Under the pieces are notes generated by a model. It saw nothing but the letters and a program-made list of their open reading frames with translations, searched no databases and was not told the origin of the DNA. A stretch of 64,000 nucleotides of DNA from Acidobacteriota bacterium (GTDB lineage: Bacteria > Acidobacteriota > Thermoanaerobaculia > Multivoradales > UBA5704), in NCBI GenBank assembly GCA_040005235.1, contig JBDTZG010000010.1, positions 58,292 through 122,291 of the forward strand, read 5' to 3'. The stretch's first letter is position 1, and every line of letters begins with the position of its first letter. The position numbers and the translations under genes are program-made. Of the stretch, positions 1-18,837 are shown one piece after another.

Positions 1-2
1 TC

Positions 3-272
3 GATGCGAAGCTCACTGCCCCACTAGCCGCCTTTCGCAGATGGGCAGGCGAAAAGCCGTTGGAGCGCTTGGCCGATTTGGCCCTACTCTGTGCGCGTGA
101 CGGGATGCTAGTAGACGGTTGCGCAAAGCGACCGGAGCGGCACGTTTCGCTCTCCACGATCCGTCGGGATCTTCTCCGACTCGAAAAATCACTTACTCCA
201 GAACAAGAAGCGGAAATCGAATCCTGCTATCACGAGCTGCGAGGCAGAAGGTTGCTATTATCTTCGGTATGA
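3..272 (+). CDS. 3' end of a gene starting before the window; ends in a DeoR-like HTH recognition-helix motif
   Basis: Frame is open from position 3 to TGA at 270-272; contains VSLSTIRRDLLRLE (DeoR-type VSxxTIRRDLxxLE). Confidence 0.55.
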   Translation, partial: DAKLTAPLAAFRRWAGEKPLERLADLALLCARDGMLVDGCAKRPERHVSLSTIRRDLLRLEKSLTPEQEAEIESCYHELRGRRLLLSSV

Positions 273-690
273 ATAGACTAACCGATACACATGCAAGCAG
301 CAGAACCCTTGGACGATTTCGTCATCACCTTCGCACCCGACGCAACGCCCGAAGAGGAAGAGCGCTTCCTCACCGAACTTGCGCATGCAATTATAGCGGT
401 CGCAAAGCACCTCGTTGATCAAGAAGATCTCGTAGCGGCTGAACAAGCAGGAGAAACTTCTGATTCAGAACACACCCTGTGACCACCCGAAGGGGGTGAT
501 GTGTGCCACAGTGGTACTAAGTCCTGTCTTGTGCGCGTGATGGGGTGTTAGTAGACGGTTGCACAAAGCAACCGGAGCGGCACATTTCCCTCTCTACCAT
601 GCGTCGCGATCTAATTCGGCTTGAAAAGTCGCTCGATCCAGAACTAGCTGCCGATATCGAGTCCTGCTATCACGAACTGCGCGGCAGAGG
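89..690 (+). repeat. Diverged ~160 bp direct repeat (copies at ~89-250 and ~529-690)
   Basis: TGTGCGCGTGA(C/T)GGG(A/G)TG(C/T)TAGTAGACGGTTGC...TCCTGCTATCACGA(G/A)CTGCG.GGCAGA occurs twice, offset 440 bp, with no indels. Confidence 0.9.
291..482 (+). CDS. Small acidic hypothetical protein (63 aa)
   Basis: ATG-started ORF with a plausible helical, acidic sequence, lying between the two repeat copies. Confidence 0.5.
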   Translation: MQAAEPLDDFVITFAPDATPEEEERFLTELAHAIIAVAKHLVDQEDLVAAEQAGETSDSEHTL

Positions 691-706
691 CACATTTGCG
701 ACCTAA
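545..706 (+). CDS. Small paralogous HTH-motif fragment/ORF (second repeat copy)
   Basis: GTG 545 to TAA 704-706: LVDGCTKQPERHISLSTMRRDLIRLEKSLDPELAADIESCYHELRGRGTFAT, colinear with the C-terminus of ORF 3..272. Confidence 0.4.
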   Translation: MLVDGCTKQPERHISLSTMRRDLIRLEKSLDPELAADIESCYHELRGRGTFAT

Positions 707-712
707 CTACAA

Positions 713-1534
713 TTAACTTTGGCCTCTAGTCGAAATTCGCCTACACCACCCTGCTACATCTTCGGGCACCGCGAGAACGAGGCGGTGTCCATGCATCTGT
801 GCGAACTGAGAAGCCGAAGGTAAAAAGCGAGAGGTGGTTACAAAGAGTCCGCGGCTTGCTTGTTGGTGCTCGACCACTCCGTAGAGAGCAGCGACAGCTT
901 CGAGCTTAACAGGGTATTGCGGGTCGTATCGTTTCGCCTGCACCAAAGTGACAAGCTCGCCGATCGAATCCTTCTGGACGAGACGAATATCGACTCCGGC
1001 ATCCCCGCTGCCTGGACCGAGTTCCGTGTGAGACCCCTGATTCCGAAAGATAGCGTCGAGAAGATATTCAAACTTTCGCCACTCTAGTTGATGGAGTTCA
1101 TTAGGATGTAGCCCAAAATATTCAATTAGCTCATCATTTACCGTCTTAAAGTCTGGCGTTACGACATGGCATACATGCGCAAACCTGGAATTTGCATAAA
1201 GAAGCTCAAAATGCCTCAATTCATTAAGTTTCTCACGCGATCTCCGCAGCCTATCTTGCCGAAGACCGTTTGGATATTGCTGATAGGTTTCAATGTCGTC
1301 GATGGCGTGATAGTTAGCGAAATCCGTGCCATCATTGACAAAAACTGCCCGATATTCGGCGAGCTGCTCATCTATTCGCTCTTCTTCTCCTTTAGCTCTC
1401 CCTTCTTCTTCAACAATGCGAGCCATTTCGGATTGCAGAAATCTTTCAAATCCGTTGTGCGGTAAGACCGCGAGCAGTTGCTCTATCGTTATCGTCTCGT
1501 CCTCCAAGAACCTATGAAACAGTTCTAGATTCAT
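713..1534 (-). CDS. Mrr-like restriction endonuclease (Mrr_cat C-terminal domain)
   Basis: WRKFEYLL...GSGDAGVDI...VQAKRY...V.ALYG...GLFVTTSRF is the Mrr catalytic-domain signature (D...QxK). Confidence 0.85.
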   Translation of the reverse strand: MNLELFHRFLEDETITIEQLLAVLPHNGFERFLQSEMARIVEEEGRAKGEEERIDEQLAEYRAVFVNDGTDFANYHAIDDIETYQQYPNGLRQDRLRRSREKLNELRHFELLYANSRFAHVCHVVTPDFKTVNDELIEYFGLHPNELHQLEWRKFEYLLDAIFRNQGSHTELGPGSGDAGVDIRLVQKDSIGELVTLVQAKRYDPQYPVKLEAVAALYGVVEHQQASRGLFVTTSRFLPSASQFAQMHGHRLVLAVPEDVAGWCRRISTRGQS

Positions 1535-2064
1535 TAAGCGTTATCTCAAAACTGAGAATTGTTTTGATTGACCGCTGTCTTTGTAGAAGAGGTGTCCACC
1601 AAATGATCCACATTCTTCCTGTAGCGCACAGGGTAGTGTGTTCTCGTGTCTAGCCAGCGGCGTCTGATGAGCGGCAGAGAATACTGGAGAAAATATAGCG
1701 GCACATCGTACATGGCGCAAGTTCTTTCTACGCCCACTCATTACGACATGGCAAAGAATGCATCCAGCGATCAGCGGCAAATGAAGAGAGTCTCAACGTA
1801 GATCTAACGGCAAAATCTCCTGAAATGGCTGCCGGGGAGAACCGACGTTTACCCCGCCGGTCCTTGGCGCTCCACTTACGTTCCGCAATTTCGTCACATT
1901 TCGGGCTCTCAAAGGCCGCAAACAAGGCGTAACTCGGTCGGTTTGTTGCGACTATCAAGAACATCCGTCCACTGAGGGCATCCCGGCCGCACTGTAGAGC
2001 CACAGGCGGCCCCTCATCCTGGGAGTCAGGAAGCGAGCGGAAGCCGTCTCGAAAGGTGTTCGGG

Positions 2065-2337
2065 ATGGTCCGTCGAACTGTCGTCCTTGTTGCGTCCTTC
2101 CTTCTGGTGGCCTCAGCGGCGCTTGCAGCAGGCGCCTCCCGCGAGTCTCGATCTCTCTGGGAATCGTTTTCGACAAGATCTTTCCTGGAATCAGTCCGTG
2201 TCGCGCTCAGCGGTCTCCTTCACGATCCGATCGGTCTCTTTGCGAACAATGGCAGCGAGACCGATCCAAACGGCAAGCCTCTCGCGTCGCCGCCGGCAGG
2301 AGTTGGAAACGGCGGCACATCTCCTCAGGCCCAGTGA
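2065..2337 (+). CDS. Small secreted peptide with an ANNGxxxDPNGKP motif
   Basis: RBS-like AAAGGTG, then ATG 2065. Signal peptide MVRRTVVLVASFLLVASAALA. The motif is shared with 61437..61793. Confidence 0.75.
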   Translation: MVRRTVVLVASFLLVASAALAAGASRESRSLWESFSTRSFLESVRVALSGLLHDPIGLFANNGSETDPNGKPLASPPAGVGNGGTSPQAQ

Positions 2338-2352
2338 TTGATGTCTGTGCTC

Positions 2353-2387
2353 GGCGGAGGCCAAATTATCGGCCTCCGCCTCTTTTT
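2353..2387 (+). terminator. Rho-independent terminator after the peptide gene
   Basis: GGCGGAGGCC-AAATTATC-GGCCTCCGCC followed by TCTTTTT. Confidence 0.8.
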
Positions 2388-2459
2388 GTCCCGGATGACC
2401 CCTTGAAGCTCACCTCCAAGAGTAAGACACTACAGCTCTAGCGCGAAAGGACACAGGGG

Positions 2460-3824
2460 ATGAATGATCTGCATCTGAGTCGGGAGCTTCTTCGTGCCAT
2501 CGCGGCCGGCGACCTTCCCCCTCGCACACTTCTCGACATGGCCCTCCCACACCTGTTCGAGCTTTGCCCGCACTGTGCCTCGGAGTGGGATTCGTATCAG
2601 CGCGAGATGCGGACGCGCCCGGGAAGTTACGCGGGCGCCTTCGCGATTCTTCCAGCCCTCCTCGAACGGGAACTTCCCAAGGCACAGGCAGAGGAACACC
2701 AAGCCCGCAAGGATCTCCAAGTCCTCTTGGGCCTCCCCGAGGACCAGCGTATTTCGCGTGTTCGTCGCTCCTATCGACGCTTCCGGACACCGACTCTGGC
2801 CCAACTCCTTGTTATCGAATGCAGGAAGCGGTTGAGTTCCGTTCCCCGCGAGGCCTACCATTTAGCGGATCTCGCTCGCGAGGTCACAAACCAGGTTCCC
2901 GAGTCACCGATCGCCCGCGAGCTGCGGGCGCTTTCGTTTGGCGAGATGGCAAACGCCATCCGGGCCGTCGGTGATCTCCCACAAAGCGACCGCATCTTCG
3001 GCCAGGCTCGCTACTTCACCGTGGTTGGCGGGGTAACCGATCCAGAGATCCTGGCACGGCTCGACTCATTGGAAGGCTCACTGCGACTCGACCAGGGCCG
3101 CTACCGTGATGCCGAAGAGATCCTCGGCAGGGCGCGGCTTCACTACGAGCTCATAGGCGACCGTCCTGCGGTCGGGCGAGTGCTCATGCAGCTCGCGACG
3201 GTGTACCGCCGCAGTGGAGAGACTTCACGCGCAGTGCGGCTCGGGACAGAGGTCGTCGGATACTTCGACCCTGAGTCCGACCTTTGCCTCTATCTCGCCG
3301 CCCGGCGGAACCTCGCGGACTACCTTGGCGATTATGGGCGCGGGAGGGAGGCCCTCGCGATTCTCGACGAGGACGAGGTGCGGCATCGCTCCCTCGGAGA
3401 GCCCCTTCTCCAGATCCGCTACACCTGGATTCGCGGCAAGATCGCTATCGGTCAAGGAGAATTCGAGAGCGCGGCGCGCCTTCTTGCCGCGGCGCGCGAT
3501 GTCTTTCTTGGCTCCCAGAAGGAGTTTGACACCGTTTTGGTCTCACTTGATCTTGCCCAGGCCTATCTTGGTGCCGGACGCCTGGAGGAGACGAAGCGAA
3601 TCGCCTCGGAAATCGTGCCGCTCTTCGAGGCGAATGAGCTGCATCGCGAGGCATTGGCGGCCGTTCTCGTTTTTCGCGACGCCGCCGAGCGCGAGACGCT
3701 TACGGTCGATTTCCTGCGAGAGATGGGAACATTCCTCGAAGCCTCCCGGACAGATCATTCTCTGCGATTCGAGCCTGGCAAGCGTCTGAATCCACGGGGA
3801 CGGACACTTAGCAATGACGCCTGA
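2460..3824 (+). CDS. TPR-repeat protein with N-terminal zinc-finger (ZAS/zf-HC2-like H...HxxxxCxxC)
   Basis: N-terminus LHLS...HLFELCPHC followed by tandem TPR-like helical repeats (e.g. LEGSLRLDQGRYRDAEEILGRA). Confidence 0.8.
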   Translation: MNDLHLSRELLRAIAAGDLPPRTLLDMALPHLFELCPHCASEWDSYQREMRTRPGSYAGAFAILPALLERELPKAQAEEHQARKDLQVLLGLPEDQRISRVRRSYRRFRTPTLAQLLVIECRKRLSSVPREAYHLADLAREVTNQVPESPIARELRALSFGEMANAIRAVGDLPQSDRIFGQARYFTVVGGVTDPEILARLDSLEGSLRLDQGRYRDAEEILGRARLHYELIGDRPAVGRVLMQLATVYRRSGETSRAVRLGTEVVGYFDPESDLCLYLAARRNLADYLGDYGRGREALAILDEDEVRHRSLGEPLLQIRYTWIRGKIAIGQGEFESAARLLAAARDVFLGSQKEFDTVLVSLDLAQAYLGAGRLEETKRIASEIVPLFEANELHREALAAVLVFRDAAERETLTVDFLREMGTFLEASRTDHSLRFEPGKRLNPRGRTLSNDA

Positions 3825-3988
3825 GACCGATGGTTTTCGCACTATGCGCCGACGCCTCTTAACGCACAGCGAGACATGCACATATCTGAATTTGACGCGA
3901 TGCGCGTGAAGCGACAGACTTCTTGACGTTATGATGCTTTTGCCCATTTTCCAGTAATGCTTTTACTCAACACCAATAGGAGACATCA

Positions 3989-4723
3989 ATGCGCTACATT
4001 CTCGCTTTCTCAATACTCCTGATCGCCGCTTCCTCTCCACACGCGAGTGCCTTGGATATTAGAACGACACCATTGCCTTCTGTCACTGCTGCAACGGTCT
4101 CTACGCAGTTTGGCTACACCACAGCCCAAGCCAAAGGAATGTTGGACTTAACCCAGAAAGAACTCTGGTCTCTCGTACCACCGAATCCGACGGCATGGAC
4201 AACTTCCACTTACGCTCTGAGAACTCGAATGAATACGGCTCTTGGGACGCAGGGTTTCGACAGTCCACTTGCAAATGTAATCATCAATTCTTGCAAGGTT
4301 TATGCTCGCGATGCTCGTCACTGTGTCATATTTGCGTCGGCGGTCGCCTGTGCTGAAAGTAGCTGCGGTCAGACATATAGCACTTCTGCTTATGCAATTT
4401 TCGGCCTCAAAGATAGCAACAGCCAACCTATTAAATACTCGTCAAGGACGCATGCGGTCATTGATTGGGTGAAGAGGTATAATGTCAGCTGGTTCGTTGC
4501 TGACGAAGGTTATTTTTACGGATTCTGCAAAAAATACGGCTCGACCTTCCTTCCGCATTGCGACAACGTAGGCACAGACTATTATGCAAATTATTTTTAC
4601 TCGAACAAGAAGGGCCGGTATCCTGCGTCGAATTATTGCGGCTCTGAGAGCGGCTCCTCCACTCCTGGTTATTGTCCAAACGGATTCGCGAATTCCAAGG
4701 CGGCGTACTTGAAGGTCAAATGA
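3989..4723 (+). CDS. Secreted Cys-rich protein, possible GH73/glucosaminidase (lysozyme-like) domain
   Basis: AGGAGA RBS; signal peptide; AVACAESSCG...AIFGL...YSSRTHAVIDWV resembles the GH73 AxAxxESxxG...NxFG...(F/Y)xS pattern. Confidence 0.5.
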   Translation: MRYILAFSILLIAASSPHASALDIRTTPLPSVTAATVSTQFGYTTAQAKGMLDLTQKELWSLVPPNPTAWTTSTYALRTRMNTALGTQGFDSPLANVIINSCKVYARDARHCVIFASAVACAESSCGQTYSTSAYAIFGLKDSNSQPIKYSSRTHAVIDWVKRYNVSWFVADEGYFYGFCKKYGSTFLPHCDNVGTDYYANYFYSNKKGRYPASNYCGSESGSSTPGYCPNGFANSKAAYLKVK

Positions 4724-4964
4724 CCTCGATTTCCGATTCTAGAGTCCAGACGCAATCCGCGGATACCATGTGAACATGCTCTTCCACTCTCGAATGCCAC
4801 CGCTCCACATGTGGCCGGAGATCGCAGCAGACCGCCGTCATGGCAAGCAATGCACTCATGACGCGCTTCCTACGCGGCTATTCTGCGGGAACAGAGCTAT
4901 CTCAATTACGGAATTCGGGCCGCGGTGTGAGGAGCACCTCAGGCCGAGCTAGCAGCAAGCCGCC

Positions 4965-6119
4965 TCACAAAGCAATCCTGAGTTGGCTGGGTGAGGCTTC
5001 CAAGGTTCTTGAACCTCCCGGAGAAGGCTTCGCAGGAATGAAGGGGCGATCAATCCACTGTTTATAGGCAGCGATGTTACAGGTAAGGAGTGCGTCCACC
5101 AACCTGTTTGCTTCCGGGTCAACTCCTTCCCACTTAATCCGCCGCGACATCAACCGCGCCCTTTTCCTCTTGATAGAATTCATGAAGGGCCTCGAATCGC
5201 TTATCGTCCAATCGGTAAAGAGTCGAGAGATCTCTCCCCTGAATTGTGCAGCTCCAACAGCAACAAGGTGCAAAGGCCGCTTCAGAGCATCCTGAAGCCG
5301 TGCTAAGTGGTGCAGGGCATCGCGCCCTCGCGCCGGATTCGCGAGACCGGTCTGGAACTCTTTCGAGACCATCGTGATCTCTTCGTGAGTCTCCAAAAAT
5401 TCGAGCCAGTATTGCCAGTCTCGTAGAGTAACAGCCTGAAGATATGGAATGATTGGAATACCACGTGCACTCCATTCCCGAGCACAGACCAAGGAGCGCT
5501 TTCGGTTGTAGAGATGCTGGGGCCGAGGATGGCGTAACGAGAAGGAATAGTTTGGAACTATTGCTCCGCTAAAACCCATTTTCGCGAGTGAAGCAAAAAT
5601 CTCTTCGTTCCTGTCTCCCCAATAGCGCTCAATGACATCATCCAGACCAATACCTACCAACAACAGCTTTGCTGTTGGTCGCAGCTTGAACCGTTCTCGG
5701 ATTGCACTGCGAGACATCGCAATAGGAGTTGGTATGCCTCGGGGATGTTGAATCAAACCAGAGAGAGGTACGGCTGCCCAATCAGCGCGAAGAGACCTCG
5801 CGCGGCTTGATCCATGCTGGATTAGCGGGAGGTAGCGTGGAAGTGCTTCAGTTGGAACATTCAAAGGTCCAATATCGTCAAAATCAAAACCTCCAACCTC
5901 AATGAATGCGTCGTTCAAGACATCAGGCTTACCGAGGCAGATAAGATCACAATCAGCGGCACAGCCGTTGCATCGGCCCTCACACCATCCCCCACCAACT
6001 CGAGTATTCCCACCACAGAGATACAATAAGCCGCAGCCCTGACACCATAAGCTGACAGTGTCACCGTCCATGCGGTGAAGTTCGATGTTCTCGCTCAAGA
6101 CCTCTCGAGACCTTTTCAT
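4965..6119 (-). CDS. DUF4417-like protein with N-terminal Cys-rich (metal-binding) region
   Basis: N-terminal CxxC...C...CxxxCxxCxxxCxxxC cluster; core PNYSFSLRHPRPQHLYNRKRSL...GIPIIPYL resembles DUF4417. Confidence 0.6.
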   Translation of the reverse strand: MKRSREVLSENIELHRMDGDTVSLWCQGCGLLYLCGGNTRVGGGWCEGRCNGCAADCDLICLGKPDVLNDAFIEVGGFDFDDIGPLNVPTEALPRYLPLIQHGSSRARSLRADWAAVPLSGLIQHPRGIPTPIAMSRSAIRERFKLRPTAKLLLVGIGLDDVIERYWGDRNEEIFASLAKMGFSGAIVPNYSFSLRHPRPQHLYNRKRSLVCAREWSARGIPIIPYLQAVTLRDWQYWLEFLETHEEITMVSKEFQTGLANPARGRDALHHLARLQDALKRPLHLVAVGAAQFRGEISRLFTDWTISDSRPFMNSIKRKRARLMSRRIKWEGVDPEANRLVDALLTCNIAAYKQWIDRPFIPAKPSPGGSRTLEASPSQLRIAL

Positions 6120-6137
6120 TAATGATCAACCTTTCGC

Positions 6138-6503
6138 TTAATGCTTCTCGTATCGAGGATGGAATTTCAGTGCAACTATTCCTTCCTCTTGGAAAACCTC
6201 GGTTACTTCGGCCGATAGAGCTTTGCTCTGTCGCGCGCTCGCGGAAGCTTCACCGAATAGTTCGACCACCCGCGATTTTCCATACGACAACGTGAAACTG
6301 TCTTGCTCTCCTACTTGAGGAAAGTGCACGAGTCTTTGACCGGGCTTGACTGACTGGCCTGGCATGAGCAGACCAATCACGTCAGACGAAATACTCGGAG
6401 GTACGCCCGAAAAAAGGTCTGGTCCAGCGAGAAACCTCTGGAAGTCGCGATCGATGCAGCGACGGATCTGTCTGTGCTGACGCTCAAGAAACTCTTCACC
6501 CAT
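6138..6503 (-). CDS. Hypothetical protein, third gene of the operon
   Basis: GGAGGT RBS before ATG 6503; tightly packed between the STAS-wHTH and DUF4417-like genes. Confidence 0.7.
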   Translation of the reverse strand: MGEEFLERQHRQIRRCIDRDFQRFLAGPDLFSGVPPSISSDVIGLLMPGQSVKPGQRLVHFPQVGEQDSFTLSYGKSRVVELFGEASASARQSKALSAEVTEVFQEEGIVALKFHPRYEKH

Positions 6504-6505
6504 AG

Positions 6506-7114
6506 CTACCTCCATAAGGGGACGTAAACAAATTGACGTCCATACTTGTAGCGACTGAGAAGCCGCTGCTCATAGAGCAGAGCAAGCCGATTGCTCCACC
6601 CTGTCTGTTGAATTCGGGGATCTTGACGAAAAAGGTCGGTAGCAGTTGCCTGTTCTAGAGAAACAACCCGGTCGTACGTCTCGGTAGCGTCTCGGTCAAG
6701 CCCGAAAGGCCGAAACTTTTGCTGATCGGGTTCCCAGAAGAGGGTTCGATAACCGGTAGCCTTGAGGGCGAGCTCAATCTCGTCCCTTGACTCTGGGTTT
6801 ACGTCTGCGAGTACTGGAAAAAGCTCCTTCTCGCGCGCAACCCGAGAATTCCAGAGCCACTCAAACGCACCGAGGAAATAGGAGGAAGTGACGAGTTGCA
6901 CTCCTCCGAAGTCCAAAAGAATTGCAGCGTTCGAGGTTTCCCTACCGATCGCCTCATCCAGGGCGGGACGAGTGGCCTCACCCGCAAGTCGGCCGGCTAG
7001 GGTCGTACTCCCCCCTAGTGCCGCTACATCTACCCTGACCTGCGTCAGCATCACCATGAATCGTGACGATAGAAGAATCGGCAAGGACTTGTCAACCCCC
7101 CCCTTACGCTCCAT
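6506..7114 (-). CDS. STAS-like (DUF4325-type) domain fused to a C-terminal winged HTH (true start may be ~7057)
   Basis: ILLDFGGVQLVTSSYF is a STAS-like LDFxGV...S motif. C-terminal ATATDLF...WSNRLALLYEQRLL.R...GRQFVY looks like a wHTH. Confidence 0.65.
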   Translation of the reverse strand: MERKGGVDKSLPILLSSRFMVMLTQVRVDVAALGGSTTLAGRLAGEATRPALDEAIGRETSNAAILLDFGGVQLVTSSYFLGAFEWLWNSRVAREKELFPVLADVNPESRDEIELALKATGYRTLFWEPDQQKFRPFGLDRDATETYDRVVSLEQATATDLFRQDPRIQQTGWSNRLALLYEQRLLSRYKYGRQFVYVPLWR

Positions 7115-8018
7115 TGAATGGGCCTCCTAGTCGAACTCGAAAGCCATTGCTCCGAACTGGCAAGGCGCGAGCATGGATCGTTTGGTGGGTGGGGCTTACC
7201 CCCTCCCATGTCGCGACAGCCCCCCCTGAGCGGAAGCGAAGAACAGCCCGACGATCGACCAAGGACTTAAAGACGCGGGAGAACCCCATTCCCCGACCTG
7301 AAATTGGCAACCGAGACACACCGGGTTGGAGCGCCTGCTCCAGTGCTTCACCTTCAGTCCCAAGAGCCTTGTGGCGCGGGTTCTCTCTCAGGCTTGCGAG
7401 CACTCCCCTCCCAACATCTACAACACTGAGAGCCCACGTTCCTTGGCCAACCTCAAAACATGCAACAGGGCGCACAGGCGAAACTGCGTGCTCTGCCGCA
7501 TTCGACATCATCTCCTGAAGCGCCCCAGCAAGTGCACTCGCGAAACCTGACCCCACGCCTTGGCTGCGCAAGGCGGTGCGGAATTGCTCCTGAAACTGGG
7601 TCAGAATTCCACCTGGCTCCCAGTCCTTCGGTGATGTACCGAATTGTTTGATTCCTGGGCGAATAGGCCCTTGGGTATATGCCAAGCTTCGGGACTGATC
7701 TGGCTGGAGAAGCTCGCAGCCCGCAGCTAGTGCTCGCAAATTAGTGAGCGCAGGCCAACGCTCCAATTCCGGAAATGATGAAATAAGATCCTCTCCGCTA
7801 TCTCGCCATCTCGAGTAGCGAAGTGCGGAGAACTCCAACGCTGAAGAAAACCCCAAACCGACGAGATTTCCTCCCGTTGCAGTTCCCCTTTGTAGGGCAA
7901 TCTCAAACAGATCAATAGGATCGAAGGATTGAGACATTCTGGTCCGCTTTGGCTTTCGGTCCACTTCCCATTGAGCAGCTCCTTTCGGTGCCGAGAAAGG
8001 CAGGCGTAAGTCTATCAT
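7104..8018 (-). CDS. GHKL/HATPase_c ATP-binding protein (anti-sigma-kinase-like)
   Basis: N box EMMSNAAEHA, G1 VVDVGRGV, G2 GVSR...GRGMGF; no HisKA or sensor TM segment is evident. Confidence 0.8.
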   Translation of the reverse strand: MIDLRLPFSAPKGAAQWEVDRKPKRTRMSQSFDPIDLFEIALQRGTATGGNLVGLGFSSALEFSALRYSRWRDSGEDLISSFPELERWPALTNLRALAAGCELLQPDQSRSLAYTQGPIRPGIKQFGTSPKDWEPGGILTQFQEQFRTALRSQGVGSGFASALAGALQEMMSNAAEHAVSPVRPVACFEVGQGTWALSVVDVGRGVLASLRENPRHKALGTEGEALEQALQPGVSRLPISGRGMGFSRVFKSLVDRRAVLRFRSGGAVATWEGVSPTHQTIHARALPVRSNGFRVRLGGPFNGA

Positions 8019-8123
8019 GGAATCAGCAGTCTCGCGCGAAGAGTGCTAACAGATCTCACTGAACCGTAGGTCAAGCAATTGTCGGCAGGCAAAGAGCCCC
8101 AGGATCTCTCCTGGGGCTGGTCG

Positions 8124-8567
8124 CTACGCTTCCGCCTCCACGAACTCCCTCACCACCGTCAGCACGCGCCTGTTCGTAACCTCCTTTCCCGTCTCAAGAA
8201 GACTGATGGTGTCCTTCGGGACATCGAGCTGCCGAGCCAACTGATACTGCGTGAGCCCGAGGTTCCGGCGCTTCTCCCGCAGCCGCTCCGCGAATGTCAT
8301 AGCCCCCTGGAAGGGTTCGTACCCTAGAAACTCGATAATCCTCCCCAGGTACGAGGTCTTCGGCTCAGCTCTCCCGGTCTCCCAAGCGTTGACCGTGTTG
8401 GCCTCCACTCCAAAGATCTCGGCAACCTCAGCCTGAAGAAGCTTCAAGTCCAGCCGGCGCTTTCGGAGGTGGTCTCCAATGGACTGGAGTTCCTTCGGAT
8501 ACTCCGGCGGCAAGGGCTTGGGCACCGAGATCGTGAGGTGGCAAAAACCCAAAGCAGGTATCGCCAT
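8124..8567 (-). CDS. XRE-family regulator with two tandem HTH_3 domains
   Basis: IGDHLRKRRLDLKLLQAEVAEIFGVEANTVNAWETGRAEP and FAERLREKRRNLGLTQYQLARQLDVPKDTISLLETG. Confidence 0.9.
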   Translation of the reverse strand: MAIPALGFCHLTISVPKPLPPEYPKELQSIGDHLRKRRLDLKLLQAEVAEIFGVEANTVNAWETGRAEPKTSYLGRIIEFLGYEPFQGAMTFAERLREKRRNLGLTQYQLARQLDVPKDTISLLETGKEVTNRRVLTVVREFVEAEA

Positions 8568-10296
8568 CAGGGTGGGTCATCACGACGGCATCCAGCCGCC
8601 GCACCCCTTCGGCTAGCAGAGCGGGAAGCAGCACCCGGCCACCGAGATCGCCGTGGCGCCAACCGCCGCCGTCGACCAGAATCGCCCGCGCGCCGTCGCG
8701 CAACAGGATCGAATCCCCCTGGCCAACGTCGAACATCGCGAGCGTCGGCTCGGTTCCCGGGGGCCGGTGCGCGCCGATCGCGACCCCCCCCCCAAGCGCC
8801 AAGGCTCCGCCGAGAGCCAAGAGCACCCGTTGGGAGCGCGACAGGCGGCGATCCGGCGCCAACGCGAGCAACCCGACGCCCGCGGCGAGCAGAATCGCCG
8901 TGCCGAGCCCCGCGGCCACCGGAATCGAAGGCCGCCAGGGGCCGGGAATCCGCGCCGGCCAGCCGAGCGGCGCCGCGAGCGCGTCGAGCCACGGCAGAAC
9001 CTGCCTTGCGAATTCCGGCGCGACGCAGGCGAGGCCCAGCCAGACGAAGCAGGCAGCGAGCGCCACGGCGGCCCACGGAATCGCGATCAGGTTGAACGCA
9101 AACGAAGCCGGGGTCAGTAGGTGAAACGCCGGAAGCGCAAAAGGAAGGGTCGCCACCTCGGCTCCCGCGCTAGCCGCGAGACCCCGCCGCAGCCACGGGC
9201 TCCAAGAAAACGGCCGGCGGTTCCAAGCCCGCTCGAACCGGGGGGCGACCACCAACAAACCGACGGTTGCGGACATCGAGAGCTGGAACGACAGATCCAG
9301 CACGAGATCCGGCCGGCTCGCCACTCCGAGCAGCAGCGCCAGACCGAGGCCATTCTTCGCCGCCGGAGGGCGTTCGAAAGCAAGGGCCGCCACGGCCAAT
9401 AAGCCCATCACCGCGGCGCGCACCAGGGCCGGGAGCGGACCGGCAATCATCAAATACGCCGCGACGGCACCCGCCGCTAGCAGCAGCCGAACTCCTCGCG
9501 GCAGCCGGCTCCCGAACAAGCCGCCGAAAAGAAAGACGAGCGCCGCGGCCAAGCCGACGTGAACCCCGGACACTGAGAGAAGATGGAACAGCCCGGTCCA
9601 CCGCAGCCCCCGCTTCCAGGCCGGCGGAATGCGCGAGGCATCCCCTAGAACGAATGCACGGACGAGCGCCTTGCCCGCGCTTTCGGGCCCCGCCGCTCCG
9701 ATCCGCCGTTCGAGAGCCCGCCGCCATCGCGAGGAAAGCCGAGAGAGCGCCCCCGGCGGCCGTTCGATTTCGAGAAACACCCGGCTCTTGAGCGACATCC
9801 GCCAACCGCCCGGCTCGCTGGGACCTGCATTCGCAAACGGTGCCGAACGTCGGAGATACCCTTCGGCCCGCACCCGCGAACCGAACTCCGGCGGTTCCTC
9901 CTCTCCGGGAATCCGCAACCGGGCCGAAAACCGGACCGGCTCCGATCGACCCGCTTGGACGAACCGGTCGACCTCGAACGGCGCCTCCCAGCCGTCCTCG
10001 TCCGCCGTCCAATGGCCGGAGATCGTGCCAGAAAGGATCACCGGCCGATCGGAATCCAAGCCCAGTTCGGCGCGTCCAGGTAGGGAGTAGAAAAGAGTCG
10101 CCACCAGAGCCCCCGCGCCCACCGCAGCGACGAGGACCCCGAACCTCCGCCGCAGAGCGAATCCCGCGGCGATCAGGGCGACCAGAAGGGGAACGGCCGG
10201 GCGAAAGGAGAAGAGCGCAAACAGAGCCCCCGCAGCCAACGCGAGGGCCGGGGCAAACAGAGGAGCGGACGGGGAGGATCGATCGTTGGTTTTCAT
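8428..10296 (-). pseudogene. comEC: ComEC/Rec2 competence channel, interrupted within the MBL domain (host-derived sequence ends ~8565)
   Basis: Competence domain HLLSVSGVHVG, RAAVM, SFQLS. MBL start FDVGQGDSILL...VDGGG...MTHPDGD, after which the expected H-x-GG and the rest of the MBL domain are replaced by unrelated sequence. Confidence 0.85.
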
Positions 10297-10452
10297 GCCC
10301 CCTAAGACGCGTTCGGGGGCCTTTGATCTTGCAGTTTCGGGCGCCGAAGAAGAAATTGTTCCCCCGCGGGCGAGAATGGCGTAAGTACGGCGTATAATCT
10401 GCCTGCCTTATCGCTCAAACCTGTGATCTGGCCCGGCCGGCCGGGAGGTGAC

Positions 10453-12177
10453 ATGCTCTCGATGATGGTGACCAGCAGCCCGGCTGAGCGAAGCCAGAGA
10501 AAGAGCTTGGGGGCCTATTACTCTCCCCATTCGCTGGTGGAACCTATGGTCGCCTGGGCTCTCACACGGGCCGATCAATCGGTGCTCGACCCTTCGTGCG
10601 GCGACGGAATCTTCTTGGCCGCGGCAGGGCGTCGACTGCGTGAGCTGGGCGCCAACCCCCGGGAAATCTCCGCTCTCCTCCATGCCGTGGATTTGAACCC
10701 CGACGCGGCTCGGTTTACCCGAGAGCGTCTGACCGCTCTCGGCCTACCGCTCGCGAACGTCCGGGTGGCGAGCTTCTTCTCGCTACCGCCTCCCGGCGGC
10801 TTGACCGGCTCCTCCGAGGGCGTCGATCTGGTGATCGGCAACCCTCCCTACATCCGCTACCAGGATTTCTCGGGCCTCGCGAGGCAAGAGGCTCTCGCCC
10901 GCGCTTCCGACGCGGGAGTTCAGCTGAACCGGCTTGCCTCCTCCTGGGCACATTTCGTAGCCCATACGGTTGCGTTCCTACGTCCTGGAGGGCGGCTCGC
11001 TTTCATCCTTCCGGCGGAGCTGATCCACGCCTCCTACGCTGCGCCGCTGCGCGAATATTTGCGCCGCTCGTTCGCCGAGGTCTCCGTCGTCTCGTTCCGG
11101 CAGGCGGTCTTTCCCGAGGTGCAAGAGGAAGTCGTCCTGCTCCTCGCTTCCGGCAAGGACCGGGCGCCGGAGCGCCTTCGCTTGGCGGAGGTCGAGTCCC
11201 CGGCCGATTTGGCCGATCTAGCGGCCGTCTTGGAAGGAGCCGAGGAATTTCACCCGGGGGTGGAACCGGCCAAATGGGTTCCGGGCTATACCGATCACCC
11301 GGGTGCCGTTTCTCTCGATCTTCTGTCGGCGCGCGGTTTGCTCGCGCCGCTCAGCGATGTCGGCAAGGCGAACATCGGTTTCGTCAGTGGAGCGAACGAA
11401 TACTTCGTCCTCACTCCCGGCGAAGCCCGGCACTGGCGCCTCCCTGATTCCTCCTTGCAGCCTGCTTTGGTCCGCGCCCGTCAGATCCCCGGTCTGCGGA
11501 TCACGAAGGCCGATCTGTCGCTCGGCAACTCGCAAGGCGATCGCTGCCTGCTCTGGCTTCCCGGAGAGCATCTCACCGCCGCCGAGAAGAGATATATCCG
11601 GCATGGCGAAGAATTGGGCTACTCCGAGCGATACAAATGCCGGGTCCGCTCTCCCTGGTTTCGGGTTCCCGGCGTCGTCAGCCCCGACGCGTTTCTGACT
11701 TACATGAGCGATGTCGTCCCCCGGCTTTGCCTGAATCAAGCGAAGACCGTCGCCTCGAACACGCTGCTCACGATTCGTCTCCAGGGGGTTCCCGCGGCCC
11801 TGCGGAGAGCTTTCGTGGCGGCGTTCTACAACTCCGCGACCCTGATGTCCGCCGAACGCATCGGGCGAAGCTACGGCGGAGGCGTGCTGAAACTGGAGCC
11901 CCGCGAAGCCGACCGCCTTCTCGTCCCCTCCGTCGAACTGGTGGGCCGACACAAGGCTTCTCTAATCAAACTGTCCGATACGATGGACACCGTCCTGCGC
12001 AACGGCCGCGATGGACGCCTGGAAGAAGCGGTGGCCGCCGTGGACGCACTTCTCTTTTCAGGAGAGGAGCTTGCCCAATCCGACATGGCGGCTGCCCGCG
12101 CGGGCCTGCGAGAGAGGCGCCAAGCGCGCGCCCGGCCTTCGCGAACGGCAGACCCGCAGGCTTTCCTTTTCGCGTAG
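10453..12177 (+). CDS. Type II N6-adenine DNA methyltransferase (gamma class)
   Basis: GGAGGT RBS before ATG 10453; GAYYSP, LDPSCGDGIFL (motif I), GNPPY (motif IV), C-terminal GRSYGGGVLKLEP. Confidence 0.9.
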   Translation: MLSMMVTSSPAERSQRKSLGAYYSPHSLVEPMVAWALTRADQSVLDPSCGDGIFLAAAGRRLRELGANPREISALLHAVDLNPDAARFTRERLTALGLPLANVRVASFFSLPPPGGLTGSSEGVDLVIGNPPYIRYQDFSGLARQEALARASDAGVQLNRLASSWAHFVAHTVAFLRPGGRLAFILPAELIHASYAAPLREYLRRSFAEVSVVSFRQAVFPEVQEEVVLLLASGKDRAPERLRLAEVESPADLADLAAVLEGAEEFHPGVEPAKWVPGYTDHPGAVSLDLLSARGLLAPLSDVGKANIGFVSGANEYFVLTPGEARHWRLPDSSLQPALVRARQIPGLRITKADLSLGNSQGDRCLLWLPGEHLTAAEKRYIRHGEELGYSERYKCRVRSPWFRVPGVVSPDAFLTYMSDVVPRLCLNQAKTVASNTLLTIRLQGVPAALRRAFVAAFYNSATLMSAERIGRSYGGGVLKLEPREADRLLVPSVELVGRHKASLIKLSDTMDTVLRNGRDGRLEEAVAAVDALLFSGEELAQSDMAAARAGLRERRQARARPSRTADPQAFLFA

Positions 12178-12179
12178 CC

Positions 12180-12947
12180 ATGGCCAGGAAGACCAGTCCC
12201 CGCGTAGCGACGAGTCCGGGCTGCCGGTCGCTCCTGGAGATGTACCTAGGGGCGGTTGACGACCGGCCTTCCCGATGGACCGAGGTCGAGGCTTCATTCC
12301 TCACCGCCATGTGGAGCTTCGATCAAGCGTTCGCCGTTGGTTTGGCCAATCAAGGTGACAATCAGAACGGCAAAGGAGACTTCTTCAACGATTTGACCGC
12401 TCTCCTCTTGGAGAATTGCTCGGGCAAGGTGCTCCAAGGCCGAGGGGCGGTACCCGGACTGATCTTTCCGAAGCACAACCTCGACACCGCCTACCCGCAT
12501 AAGGGAACGGTCGAAATCTTGATCGAGACCAAGGCGGCGGGTGCGCCGAAGACCCTTCGGAACCCGCAACAAAAGAATCCCAAGGGCCGGCCAGGAAGCT
12601 CAGATCTCGACAAGAGGATCAAGGAAGCCGGTTTGAAGTCCATCGACCTCAAGGCTGAGTGGGCGCGTACCGCCGGCCAAGGCGGAGGTCCCACGAGCGA
12701 CCTGGTGAGCTGGCTCAAGAGGAGCAAGCCACTGTCGTTCCTATTCCTGGCGATCCGAGTGGTTGACGACAACGATCTCAAGCGAACGCTCTTTTTTGCC
12801 GACGCCGCCAACCAATTAATGGATGGCGTCGGCGTGGTGGCCTATCAACCTGCCGGCGAGGGCTATCGGGTCCGCCAGGTCCCCACTCATTTGGAGCTCG
12901 ATCGAGTCATGAGCCGAGTCTGCACGGCGCTGCGCGGCTTGCCGTGA
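12180..12947 (+). CDS. Putative type II restriction endonuclease (PD-(D/E)xK)
   Basis: ATG 2 nt after the MTase stop; HNLD...ILIETK catalytic-like motif; 255 aa. Confidence 0.65.
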   Translation: MARKTSPRVATSPGCRSLLEMYLGAVDDRPSRWTEVEASFLTAMWSFDQAFAVGLANQGDNQNGKGDFFNDLTALLLENCSGKVLQGRGAVPGLIFPKHNLDTAYPHKGTVEILIETKAAGAPKTLRNPQQKNPKGRPGSSDLDKRIKEAGLKSIDLKAEWARTAGQGGGPTSDLVSWLKRSKPLSFLFLAIRVVDDNDLKRTLFFADAANQLMDGVGVVAYQPAGEGYRVRQVPTHLELDRVMSRVCTALRGLP

Positions 12948-13077
12948 TCAGGTTCGCTCCATCTCTCACGCCTGCATCGCTCTAGCCGCAGCGCCCACTC
13001 GCCGCATTCCAAACTCTCGGCTTGAGGAGCCGCTCACTCGCGAGCTGGCACGGCAGATTGCCGAGAGGAAGAAAGAT

Positions 13078-13154
13078 TGGTCGGGACGCCGGGATTTGAA
13101 CCCGGGACCCCCTGAACCCCATTCAGGTACGCTACCAGACTGCGCTACGTCCCG
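13078..13154 (-). tRNA. tRNA-Pro(GGG)
   Basis: Reverse complement CGGGACGTAGCGCAGTCTGGTAGCG...CCTGA-AT-GGG-GT-TCAGG...GGTTCAAATCC...CCCGACCA. Confidence 0.95.
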
Positions 13155-13175
13155 ACCGGAACTGCGGGGAAACGA

Positions 13176-13775
13176 CTACGGGGAACTGCTTTCGAGGAGA
13201 GCCAGGATCTCACGGGCTTGACCGAGCGCTTGGCGTATCCCCGAACGGAGGGTTTGTATCCGCTCGGTGCCCTGGGTGTCAAGCGAAAGGACAGGGATCT
13301 CGGGCGGATCGGGCAGGAGCGGCAGGTCCAATTCTGGGTCGAAGGATAGATCCGCGAAGGACGCCGAGACGGCAGGCGCGGCGGTCGCCTTGGCGGCTCG
13401 CTTGGCCGGTCGGAGCGGGAGATCCGCAGCTGGGGCTTCCGCGATGCCCGCGACGGCCGGCTCGGCGGCTCCCGCGGTTTCGATCAGGCTGGGTGTGCCG
13501 TCTTCGTCAAGGGTGCCGTTTTCAAGCTCGGTTTCGAGGCGCTTCTTCGCTCCGGCGATGGTGTAGCCCTCGCCGTAGAGCAGCTCTTTGATCCGGCGGA
13601 TGATCGCCAGCTCTTTTTCGCTGTAGACGCGCTGGCCGGAGCGGCTCTTGGACGGCGAAAGGGCGGGAAACTCGGTCTCCCAATAGCGCAGCACGTAAGG
13701 CTGGATGTCGAGCGCCTTACAGGCCTCACCGATTTTGTAATAGAGGCGTTTCTGCACGCGGGCCTTGGGCGGCAT
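13176..13775 (-). CDS. MerR-family HTH regulator
   Basis: YYKIGEAC...YVLRYWETEFP.L.P.KSRSGQRVY; classic IHF-merR-tRNA-Pro arrangement. Confidence 0.9.
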   Translation of the reverse strand: MPPKARVQKRLYYKIGEACKALDIQPYVLRYWETEFPALSPSKSRSGQRVYSEKELAIIRRIKELLYGEGYTIAGAKKRLETELENGTLDEDGTPSLIETAGAAEPAVAGIAEAPAADLPLRPAKRAAKATAAPAVSASFADLSFDPELDLPLLPDPPEIPVLSLDTQGTERIQTLRSGIRQALGQAREILALLESSSP

Positions 13776-13778
13776 CGG

Positions 13779-14072
13779 TTACGACTCTTCGCCGGGTTCG
13801 GTGATTTCGTCCTTGAGCCGCCGGGCGGGCCGGAAGGCGAGCCCCTTGTGCGGACGAATGAAGATCTTCTCGCCTGAGGTCGGACTCACTCCCTGGCGCC
13901 CGGGGCGCTTGGTGATCTCGAACGTCCCGAAGTTCTTGATTCGAACGGGCCGGCCGTCGCCGAGCGTCGACTTGACGGTGGTGAAAATCGCGTCGATCAC
14001 CTCCGCCGCCTCGTCCTTGGTCAAACCCCCATGCCGCTGGTAGACCACATCCACCAGATCGGCCTTGGTCAT
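13779..14072 (-). CDS. Integration host factor/HU family DNA-binding protein
   Basis: MTKADLV...VRIKNFGTFE...RQGVSPTSGEKIFI...FRP. Confidence 0.92.
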   Translation of the reverse strand: MTKADLVDVVYQRHGGLTKDEAAEVIDAIFTTVKSTLGDGRPVRIKNFGTFEITKRPGRQGVSPTSGEKIFIRPHKGLAFRPARRLKDEITEPGEES

Positions 14073-14215
14073 GCCCAGACGGTCGTGTTTGTTCTTCGTC
14101 GCCACGGTTCGAAAAGTGTCCCCGGAATGTCGCCCAACAGTCAAAAAGATTCGAGCGGCAAGTATAGAAGCGGGCAGGGCGGGGAGCAAGCCGACGAGCA
14201 GAGGGAGGCGGCGGA

Positions 14216-15559: not shown

Positions 15560-15589
15560 GAGGTTTGGCTTTCTGGCGGGTCGCGAATT

Positions 15590-17953: not shown

Positions 17954-18024
17954 AAGCTCAGGGCAGTGTACCGCGTTGCCGTCCGACAAGCTGACCCCGC
18001 CGGCTGGACGTTCGGCTCCCGAAT

Positions 18025-18322
18025 GTGCAGAGCTGGAAGAAATCTGTGCGTTCGCGGCCTGCATCACCGAGTTTCAGAGGTCTCGATGTGCGGCACATAG
18101 AAGGGCCTTGTGCGAACCGCTCTCCAGGAGCCGCTGTTCCGAGTGCTGGAAGCGGCCGAGCGACCCACGGCGCACAGATTTCGATGCGCGACGCACAATC
18201 TTGAGGACCGACAAGCGGTCCACGGCAGCGGAAATGGTCTCCGAGCTCTCCGATATCGAATTCGGGACTCAGCCGAGTGGTTTTCTGGTCCAACTTCGCA
18301 CAGATTTCTTCCAGCTCTGCAC
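18025..18322. repeat. Perfect 26-bp inverted repeat flanking 246 bp, within a GCACA-motif-rich intergenic tract
   Basis: GTGCAGAGCTGGAAGAAATCTGTGCG (18025-18050) and CGCACAGATTTCTTCCAGCTCTGCAC (18297-18322). Confidence 0.9.
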
Positions 18323-18694
18323 GCGCGAGAGTCACGAAACGGGTCTCGGCTTTCGCGTCCGCACAATCGGCGATGAAATCCGCACATCCGCGAGTCCGCA
18401 GAACGGTTTCGGCATTCCGGATTGGAGTTCCGCGTACCGCCGCCGCACAGACCTGAAGCGCGTCTGCACATCCGGCACTCCGCGGAGCGCTTTCGGCGGC
18501 TGCCGCATCTTTCTGCTGACCCAAAGCGCCAGGCTGGAGCCTGGCGAGCCCAGGAAGACGCCGTGATGCAGGACCCTGGGACCGCCGAGCACCAGCTCGG
18601 CTGCTTTTACACCCCTCGCCGCTTCGGTGCCGAGCTGGTGCTCGGCGGTCCCAGGAACTACATACGGCCGCGGCCTCCTCGCTCCGGACCGAGT

Positions 18695-18725
18695 TTGACA
18701 CTCCTCCCCCGCTTGCGACTACAAT
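18695..18725 (+). promoter_or_regulatory. Possible sigma70 promoter for tRNA-Leu
   Basis: TTGACA (18695-18700) and TACAAT (18720-18725); the 19-nt spacer is longer than optimal. Confidence 0.4.
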
Positions 18726-18736
18726 CCCCCCGTCAC

Positions 18737-18824
18737 GCGAAAGTGGCGGAATTTGGTAGACGCGCAAGATTCAGGATCTTGTGGTCGCAAGGCCGTGGGG
18801 GTTCGAGTCCCCCCTTTCGCACCA
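18737..18824 (+). tRNA. tRNA-Leu(CAG)
   Basis: GCGAAAGTGGCGGAATTTGGTAGACGCG-CAAGA-TT-CAG-GA-TCTTG, long variable arm, GGTTCGAGTCC...TTTCGCACCA. Confidence 0.95.
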
Positions 18825-18837
18825 TCCCCGTTCTCCC

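Follow-up and report, generated by a model that had tools for sequence, protein, structure and literature searches.

A mobile four-gene cassette with a predicted CapK/CapS-type phospho-switch and a presumed TGT-fold effector in an Acidobacteriota genome

The four genes and their linkage

The cassette considered here lies at 4965-8018 of a 64,000-nucleotide (nt) stretch of DNA from an Acidobacteriota bacterium (assembly GCA_040005235.1, contig JBDTZG010000010.1), hereafter the window. A Der GTPase encoded nearby has 70-74% identity to proteins named as Thermoanaerobaculia metagenome-assembled genomes, in keeping with a probably uncultured, Acidobacteriota-like host. It consists of four packed, co-directional open reading frames (ORFs) on the minus strand, which encode, in order, a GHKL-type kinase (P0001), a STAS domain fused to a winged helix-turn-helix (wHTH) domain (P0002), a small protein (P0003) and a cysteine-rich, DUF4417-like protein (P0004). 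The cassette is a candidate inducible defence or DNA-modification module. Its G+C content is that of a poorer segment (0.46-0.65 in 1-8500 vs. 0.61-0.73 in 8501-20000); the AT-richer setting and the tight packing of the genes had both been described in an initial annotation, and both hold. The features of the cassette are listed below, with the likely start codons of P0001, P0002 and P0003 set by alignment with homologues and protein lengths in amino acids (aa).

7104-8018, minus strand: kinase P0001, longest ORF, 304 aa
7104-7937, minus strand: P0001 from its likely start M28, 277 aa
6506-7114, minus strand: STAS-wHTH protein P0002, longest ORF, 202 aa
6506-7057, minus strand: P0002 from its likely start M20, 183 aa
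6138-6515, minus strand: small protein P0003, longest ORF, 125 aa
6138-6503, minus strand: P0003 from its likely start M5, 121 aa
4965-6119, minus strand: cysteine-rich DUF4417-like protein P0004, ORF, 384 aa
7066-7095, minus strand: sigma-70-like promoter TTGACA-18-TATCGT, located between the kinase stop codon (7104-7106) and the start of the STAS gene
7049-7068, unstranded: putative operator CGTCA-N10-TGATG, one mismatch from CGTCA-N10-TGACG, overlapping the -10 element and the start codon (ATG) of the STAS-wHTH gene

With the revised starts, 46 nt separate the kinase gene from the STAS gene, 2 nt the STAS gene from the small gene, and 18 nt the small gene from the DUF4417 gene. The M5 start gives the small protein the length of 121 aa that it had been assigned initially.

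The four genes recur together in other genomes. One genome per species was scanned with the P0004 alignment, using two peptide patterns that reach close relatives only, and the linkage in the resulting 16 loci was judged by tblastn and ORF alignment. The STAS-wHTH gene is present in all 14 loci with enough upstream DNA. In each of the 14 loci that could be assessed for it, a homologue of the small gene occupies the equivalent position, and the kinase gene is found in 12 of 12. Two loci (L005 and L008) begin too near the STAS gene for the kinase to be judged, and two others (L013 and L016) begin inside the DUF4417 gene. Among the hosts are Myxococcota, Patescibacteria, Gammaproteobacteria, Binatia, Acidobacteriota and Armatimonadota. 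All four genes are also carried by four plasmids, in which the gene order is unchanged (Planctomyces), the kinase gene comes last (Aminobacter and Rhizobium phaseoli) or the kinase match lies on the opposite strand (Sinorhizobium). A fifth plasmid, from Rhizobium sp. CB3090, displays a like pattern, judged from its annotated genes alone. By locus, the kinase gene lies downstream in two cases (L018 and L023) and is inverted in two others (L010 and L019); the window keeps the kinase-STAS order. Since the four genes persist on plasmids in which the kinase gene is downstream or inverted, their linkage survives rearrangement.

Predicted regulatory and effector halves

P0002 on its own matches no Pfam family, and its assignment comes from its relatives. 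Eight of the 15 family members match DUF4325, a STAS-like family (best expect value, E, 2.7e-5), and the 15-member family profile aligns over its full length (positions 4-176) with chain 9z72_A of V. cholerae CapS (residues 6-170; E 3.6e-5). The entries concerned, 9z72 and 9z73, are deposited as "MarR family transcriptional regulator"; they are taken here as CapS S58A because two entries with ten chains fit the two crystal forms of V. cholerae CapS with five protomers each (Chambers et al., EMBO J 2026, PMC13373217). The same profile matches Escherichia VapS (9z7o, E 0.0047) and, weakly, the anti-sigma antagonists 3t6o (E 0.039) and 1sbo (E 1.3). The string LDFGGVQLVTSS occupies residues 67-78 of P0002 (numbering of the 202-aa ORF), and S78 is kept in at least 90% of the 15 rows. 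In the HMMER alignment, S78 pairs with an Ala of the CapS S58A crystal chain and with the Ser at position 66 of the VapS chain, which corresponds to S48 after an 18-residue tag offset derived from the chain length of 134 and the residue numbers in the paper (PMC13373217). Within the wHTH domain, T171, W173, N175, R176 and L177 are invariant. P0002 is predicted to be a divergent relative of CapS, that is, a STAS-wHTH repressor with S78 as the candidate phospho-acceptor. The fusion of a STAS domain to a wHTH domain in a DNA-binding protein, as initially proposed, agrees with the full-length match to CapS; of the Ser/Thr that had been placed at the phospho-acceptor position, the conserved residue itself stands, and its phosphorylation is a prediction.

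P0001 falls just under the cut-off of the Pfam family HATPase_c_2 (25.7 bits vs. 27.4; E 1.2e-5), which is matched by nine of the 11 members of the P0001 family. The N, G1 and G2 boxes, on which the initial description of a stand-alone GHKL ATPase had been based, are invariant in 30 aligned kinases (E169/N173, D201-G203-G205 and G243-G245). In the AlphaFold2 (AF2) model, which has a predicted local distance difference test score (pLDDT) of 86.7, residues 34-97 form helices only and are followed by one strand and then by the GHKL domain (138-300; numbering of the 304-aa ORF). The best Foldseek matches of this domain by target coverage are SpoIIAB chains 1tid_C and 1thn_A, with a target template-modelling (TM) score of 0.73-0.74 and a probability of 1.00. 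Foldseek returned no match for the N-terminal domain, and a single-sequence search of P0001 against PDB sequences found nothing. From its motifs and its model, P0001 is predicted to be a SpoIIAB-like Ser kinase with a helical sensor domain of its own. An identity as DrmA of the DISARM system was considered and rejected: the PADLOC match covers 114 of 1750 profile positions, corresponding to the GHKL part alone, and no other DISARM gene was found.

The promoter in the kinase-STAS gap is the only promoter-like site in 4700-8700, where shuffled sequences give a mean of 1.2, so that one site is no more than shuffles give. In most loci a TTGAC is present at the equivalent place, either overlapping the stop codon of the kinase gene or following it. 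A transcript of genes 2-4 from this promoter would be leaderless or nearly so, and genes 3 and 4 should be co-transcribed with the repressor because there is no room for a promoter before them. The exact palindrome CGTCA-N10-TGACG stands at the homologous junction in L001, L002, L004, L006 and L014, with just one further exact match across the 16 loci. Palindromes of the form CCTCAC...GTGAGG occupy the equivalent place in L007, L009 and L012, L003 carries a variant palindrome, and L008 has ATTCA-6-TGAAT. On plasmids with the kinase gene downstream, a palindrome still lies directly upstream of the STAS gene, as CTCACGT-5-ACGTGAG in L018 and as CCTATCTCAC-9-GTGAGATAGG in L023. As read from these motifs, the start of the STAS gene has the architecture of an autoregulated, near-leaderless repressor gene with a putative operator.

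The fourth protein, P0004, scores 14 bits against DUF4417 (PF14386), below the cut-off of 28.9 (E 0.036). Its relatives make the assignment clearer: 12 of 22 match DUF4417 at E up to 1 (best 1.1e-6), those on plasmids are named DUF4417 in RefSeq, and the related ESM Atlas clusters bear the same name. The DUF4417-like label of the initial annotation is therefore borne out at the level of the family, and its N-terminal cluster of about nine cysteines is revised to eight (C26-C61), of which C61 is invariant and C26, C29, C35, C46, C50, C53 and C57 are kept in 90% of rows or more. The AF2 model of P0004 (pLDDT 84.7, predicted TM score 0.84) is confident outside the first 60 residues. In a Foldseek search of the PDB, the top eight matches are all bacterial TGT or human QTRT1 (E 5e-4 to 9.5e-4, query TM 0.42-0.46) and DpdA (7ui4) ranks 19; matches to TGT, QTRT1 and DpdA as a whole span E 5e-4 to 2.4e-3 and query TM 0.35-0.48, as against a TM of about 0.30 for generic TIM barrels. 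In BFVD, 13 matches reach E 1e-3, and those that are named are phage "queuine tRNA-ribosyltransferases". The ESM Atlas model of P0004 itself has as neighbours a DUF4417 cluster (43% with ParB_N, 65% viral; TM 0.44/0.56) and an archaeal cluster of the TGT family (TM 0.50/0.74). These fold matches favour the earlier guess of a TIM-barrel, base-exchange-like protein, for which a comparison with TGT and DpdA had been suggested. Residues G156, D160, E164, W167, N190, S192, P198, R199, R208, G220, D234, T257, L272, L275, G289 and F301 are invariant across the genomic settings of DUF4417 that were compared, and D308-S309 within the clade of P0004. On the modelled fold, P0004 is presumed to be the effector, composed of an eight-Cys domain and a TGT/DpdA-like (beta/alpha) barrel. 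TGT and DpdA use an Asp nucleophile for catalysis and Asp/Ser residues for base recognition, and D160, E164, D234 and D308-S309 are the conserved residues of P0004 noted in this regard.

The P0004 family is large. A word-index search had suggested a rare family (27 matches), and this was overturned by an exhaustive profile search, which returned 1400 representatives with an E of 1e-3 or better and 451 with an E of 1e-30 or better. Among the best 150 matches, the alignment mostly begins inside the Cys-rich region, and several sequences are fragments truncated at the N-terminus. As far as it is searchable, the literature that mentions DUF4417 assigns it no function, and NCBIfam gave nothing useful for the proteins of the cassette.

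P0003 begins with an Arg-rich helix, starting MGE[DE]F, which precedes a poorly conserved and probably beta-rich domain. Only M1 and G2 are invariant in its family, in which identity is 17-29%. Pfam, NCBIfam and PADLOC hold no match to it, and the best ESM Atlas score, 0.85, offers no lead. A model of the P0003-P0004 complex scores 0.61, compared with 0.02 for the best of three controls. The score mark used is reached by 58 of 80 solved complexes and by 2 of 110 mismatched pairs, a calibration that is only rough because the alignments were made for this analysis. At least 83% of contacts are shared between runs, and the pLDDT of the partner is 67 or higher. The modelled interface joins residues 28-34 and 62-81 of P0004, in the Cys-rich domain and the next helix, to residues 57-64, 71-78, 94-97 and 115-117 of P0003. 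The model supports P0003 as the predicted partner of P0004, sitting on its Cys-rich N-terminal domain.

Proposed mechanism, alternatives and surroundings

In the CapK/CapS system, the kinase CapK (HTH-STAS-GHKL) is switched on by single-stranded DNA (ssDNA) and adds a phosphate to a conserved Ser of the STAS-wHTH repressor CapS, which is a dimer; phosphorylation frees CapS from palindromic operators and thereby derepresses a downstream immune operon (PMC13373217). The interpretation preferred here, in which we place moderate confidence as a whole, is that the cassette is a self-contained, horizontally mobile four-gene module with a CapK/CapS-type phospho-switch wired to a two-subunit TGT-fold effector. 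We are more confident of the switch and less so of the chemistry. In resting cells, a P0002 dimer would occupy the palindromic operator at the -10 element and ATG of the P0002 gene itself, as CapS homology and the conserved operator suggest, and transcription of P0002-P0003-P0004 would be low. A signal of infection or DNA damage would turn on P0001, which would in turn phosphorylate Ser78 of P0002; ssDNA as the trigger would be no more than an analogy with CapK, whose sensor domain P0001 lacks. Phosphorylated P0002 would then, again by analogy, leave the DNA and the operon would be derepressed. P0004 would accumulate with P0003 bound to its Cys-rich N-terminal domain, as modelled, and the two would presumably excise or exchange a base in a nucleic acid, most likely DNA, so as to restrict the invader or stop the infected cell.

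Several results weigh against this interpretation. An hhalign comparison of the kinase family with the STAS family gave a probability of 0.08%, which speaks for no STAS domain in the kinase N-terminus. That domain is all-helical, unlike the HTH-STAS part of CapK, in which ssDNA is placed between STAS and GHKL (PMC13373217); since P0001 has a helical N-terminal domain in which no STAS was found, the HTH and STAS domains of CapK are absent from it, and with them the STAS-GHKL groove proposed for ssDNA. CapKS systems also have a separate capS-cargo promoter (PMC13373217), which the cassette, with its 2-nt gap, lacks. Taken alone, the putative operator of the window, with its one mismatch, is not significant (2 matches in the window vs. 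2.33 expected), and the palindromes of L011, L015, L017 and L019 are other or unclear, as is that of L010. On the effector side, the resemblance to TGT is modest (query TM 0.35-0.48, about 12% identity). None of the 22 members of the P0004 family matches Pfam TGT (PF01702) at E up to 1, the family profile has 0 matches among PDB sequences at E up to 10, and the single sequence finds nothing there below E 0.45. Genes for preQ0 or other base precursors (QueC, QueD, QueE and FolE families) and for ParB are absent from 116 neighbour ORFs of 12 loci and from the window, and P0004 had no counterpart in 50,697 phage records searched by tblastn. Finally, PADLOC 2.0.0 holds no model for genes 2-4; as the initial annotation had anticipated, the four-gene system is unlisted there.

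One alternative, which we consider unlikely, is a DNA-modification or anti-restriction module of mobile elements, in which P0004 and P0003 install or exchange a base in the DNA of the element or the host for protection and are switched on at DNA entry or damage. The surroundings of the cassette vary between loci and include CBASS-like SAVED and E1/E2 genes, integrases, a serine recombinase with TrbL, a type ISP enzyme and DUF6119; its position next to integrases and recombinases, and on plasmids beside conjugation genes, would suit such a role. Other genomic settings of DUF4417 would suit it as well. On Streptomyces and Mycolicibacterium plasmids (L020 2054-5921, L021 3445-5900 and L022 3703-5909), a Cys-rich DUF4417 gene directly follows a gene for a ParB N-terminal domain, and these pairs adjoin replication-relaxation and ATP/GTP-binding genes in a manner reminiscent of DpdB/DpdA. 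On a C. perfringens plasmid (L024 2231-5960), the DUF4417 gene lies between genes for a Dcm cytosine methyltransferase and an amidoligase-family protein. DUF4417 is reportedly fused to ParB in phages. These ParB-linked, ParB-fused and Dcm/amidoligase settings, which count for the preferred interpretation too, would point to DNA as the substrate of DUF4417. The fold neighbour DpdA is reportedly a DNA preQ0 insertase. A modifying role is, however, hard to reconcile with the missing precursor-synthesis genes (in the cassette and among the 116 neighbour ORFs) and with the lack of a cognate restriction component conserved among the neighbour ORFs of the 12 loci. Tight default repression by a damage-type switch would also suit a costly effector better than a housekeeping mark. 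As a separate observation, 42 of the 85 plasmid records with a match are from Clostridium.

A second alternative, slightly less probable still, is a toxin-antitoxin module in which P0003 or the STAS protein binds the toxin P0004 and keeps it inactive until the kinase releases it, with no need for transcription. The VapK/VapS/VapC (VapKSC) system uses a like kinase-STAS pair in this way, controlling a PIN toxin at the level of the protein (PMC13373217). The match of VapS to the P0002 profile and the fast evolution of P0003 (17-29% identity), which is usual among antitoxins, fit this alternative, and so does the modelled binding of P0003 to P0004. The modelled interface, however, lies on the Cys-rich N-terminal domain and not on the barrel. 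Moreover, P0002 keeps a full wHTH domain with invariant residues and a conserved putative operator, whereas VapS has only a short C-terminal helix (PMC13373217).

Classical partner switching, the logic with which such pairs had been associated initially, is very improbable. The kinase would here be an anti-factor that sequesters P0004, or a sigma factor encoded elsewhere, and would be relieved by the unphosphorylated STAS protein, as in SpoIIAB/SpoIIAA. The SpoIIAB-like fold of the kinase domain and the weak profile matches of the STAS protein to 3t6o and 1sbo agree with this view. Yet no sigma factor gene lies in the cassette or is conserved among the neighbour ORFs of the 12 loci, the STAS protein has a DNA-binding domain and a putative operator at its own gene, and CapS, its closest characterised relative, is a repressor (PMC13373217). 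Because the P0002 family matches the crystal sequences of CapS and VapS, the logic of the pair is predicted to be kinase-controlled transcriptional repression rather than partner switching of the sigma-factor type.

That unrelated genes came together by chance in a variable island, which the initial annotation had set as the reading to exclude by gene neighbourhoods, has a negligible probability: the surroundings do differ between loci, but this reading is refuted by the co-occurrence of the four genes in all 12 genome loci that could be fully assessed and in four plasmids, in three gene orders and several phyla.

The preferred interpretation, a CapK/CapS-type switch with a TGT-fold effector, can be taken further, in a form that must be regarded as tentative. 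The long, Cys-rich DUF4417 proteins may represent a new branch of transglycosylases or glycosylases of nucleic acids, which together with a small, Arg-rich subunit forms an inducible immune effector. DUF4417 as a whole, with its ParB-linked members in phages and plasmids, may then be a family of DpdA-like DNA base-exchange enzymes, and the helical N-terminal domain of the kinase may be a new infection sensor, unlike the ssDNA-sensing STAS domain of CapK.

Several genes with links to defence or DNA uptake surround the cassette in the window. They are as follows.

713-1534, minus strand: Mrr-type type IV restriction endonuclease (Pfam Mrr_cat 2e-25; PADLOC mREase_IV 9.3e-15), 3.4 kb from the cassette
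2460-3824, plus strand: TPR protein
3989-4723, plus strand: 244-aa protein, for which no Pfam or PADLOC family was found
8095-8118: perfect 10-bp inverted repeat with a 4-nt loop
8124-8567, minus strand: XRE-type gene with a double HTH
8428-10296, minus strand: ComEC/Rec2 ORF, 622 aa
10423-12177, plus strand: Eco57I-like type II methyltransferase
11637-12947, plus strand: ORF matching a type II restriction enzyme (PADLOC E 5.5e-8)

The TPR protein gene and the gene that follows it form a pair between the Mrr gene and the cassette. On the other side, the last two ORFs listed constitute a type II restriction-modification pair 2.4 kb from the cassette; the second probably has a later start, since it overlaps the methyltransferase ORF by 541 nt. 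The ComEC/Rec2 ORF covers only positions 2-55 of the 196-position Lactamase_B profile. It ends at the drop in G+C, and its 3' end overlaps the XRE-type gene by 140 nt; the low-G+C segment may have been inserted into comEC, truncating it. The inverted repeat is located just past the stop codon of the XRE-type gene and upstream of the kinase gene, and could be a terminator of the former or a binding site.

Neighbours of the cassette in other loci can be summarised in the same way. The CBASS-like and KwaB-like genes, integrases and type ISP enzyme of these loci count, with the restriction genes of the window, in favour of the preferred interpretation. Genes resembling the cyclic-oligonucleotide-based anti-phage signalling system (CBASS), with SAVED-domain and ThiF/E2-type proteins, adjoin it in two unrelated loci (L002 1477-4887 and L007 9428-13685). 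A DprA-like gene, next to genes of the phosphoribosyltransferase family, lies just upstream in L007 (1824-6240, a Paceibacterota metagenome-assembled genome) and L019 (397-2622, the Sinorhizobium plasmid). After the cassette follow DUF499 and DUF1156 genes in L018, and a KwaB-like gene and a PIN gene in L019.

Comparison with known systems

The regulatory half of the cassette is closest to CapK/CapS. Both consist of a gene for a GHKL Ser kinase followed by one for a STAS-wHTH repressor, about 185 aa long, that bears a conserved Ser in STAS helix 2, and in both a palindromic operator (putative here, from the sequence) lies at the promoter of the repressor, in the short gap between the two genes (PMC13373217). 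The "wide palindrome" operator of CapS is N10-spaced, as is CGTCA-N10-TGACG in the cassette family; the half-sites differ, being TTAA in CapS and CGTCA or CTCAC in the cassette family (PMC13373217). In CapKS, too, the cargo is encoded downstream, and the pair is often found near restriction-modification genes (PMC13373217). P0001 keeps the GHKL kinase motifs, including the catalytic Asn, in all 30 rows. The gene order is more variable than in CapKS: all 443 capK genes precede capS (PMC13373217), whereas the kinase gene of the cassette may be downstream or inverted.

Differences extend to hosts and cargo. The CapKS hosts named in the rows of Dataset EV2 considered here are chiefly Gammaproteobacteria, with some Betaproteobacteria, and some of these rows give the cargo as "Unknown" (PMC13373217). 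The cargo listed there comprises CBASS, Bub, DUF4747, Thoeris IV, Bil, MBL and YegP, and the type represented by P0004 is not among these (PMC13373217). In a term search of the accessible supplements of the paper, DUF4417, Polyangium and Enhygromyxa were absent, and DUF4417 is absent from its accessible text as well (PMC13373217). The initial claim that a system of this make-up had yet to be characterised is thereby outdated for the first two genes, which have a counterpart in CapK/CapS since 2026, and stands for the four-gene set with DUF4417 cargo within the reach of that search. As far as it is searchable, the literature on DUF4417, DUF4325, CapK/CapS/GHKL and DpdA/anti-phage/TGT-like proteins does not describe the four-gene system.

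VapKSC shares with the cassette a kinase and a STAS protein with a conserved phospho-acceptor, the P0002 profile matching VapS and S78 aligning with S48. By contrast, VapS lacks a wHTH domain and binds its PIN toxin directly, and VapK keeps a STAS domain (PMC13373217). A Pfam search of the cassette found no PIN domain. The resemblance to SpoIIAB/SpoIIAA and RsbW/RsbV lies in the kinase fold (TM of 0.73-0.74 to the SpoIIAB target) and in a STAS substrate with a Ser at the start of helix 2; the cassette differs in having no sigma factor and in a STAS protein that is predicted to be a DNA-binding repressor.

For the effector half, the nearest comparisons are DpdA and TGT, which provide the best fold matches of P0004 in the PDB and BFVD searches. 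DpdB is a ParB-like protein, and relatives of DUF4417 pair or fuse with ParB-type proteins much as DpdA pairs with DpdB. The cassette itself differs from Dpd in lacking ParB and preQ0 genes, over the 12 loci and 116 ORFs already mentioned. P0004 also differs from TGT and DpdA in having no Pfam TGT match, an identity of about 12% and an N-terminal eight-Cys domain, the Zn site of TGT being C-terminal.

Cap10 of type IV CBASS offers a second comparison. It is described as a TGT-family immune enzyme that acts on a partner protein, for which the N-terminal Gly2 of the partner is key (bioRxiv 10.1101/2025.04.06.647259). The only invariant residues of P0003, M1 and G2, recall this Gly2. The cassette differs in having neither a QueC-like Cap9 nor a CD-NTase, and the model puts the beta-domain of P0003, not its N-terminus, on the Cys-rich domain of P0004 rather than in the barrel. 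As the N-terminus is not among the modelled contacts named above, insertion of the Gly into the pocket of P0004, in the manner of Cap10 and CdnD, is neither supported nor excluded.

If the preferred interpretation is correct, the CapK/CapS switch would reach at least eight phyla, beyond the hosts named in the rows considered, which are mainly gamma- and betaproteobacterial, and would work with another sensor domain and with hard-wired cargo. It would also provide the first functional handle on DUF4417, which comprises 1400 representative clusters and is common in phages and plasmids. The TGT-fold enzyme of Dpd reportedly has an immune role. After Dpd and Cap10, and as far as the available sources extend, the cassette would add a third such role for TGT-fold enzymes, this time with a metal-binding domain, which would matter to the fields of both defence systems and nucleic-acid modification. 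Set against known systems, the cassette thus has a familiar part and a new one: its regulatory half is predicted to work like CapK/CapS, although the kinase fails one defining feature of CapK, and its effector is an uncharacterised protein with a TGT fold.

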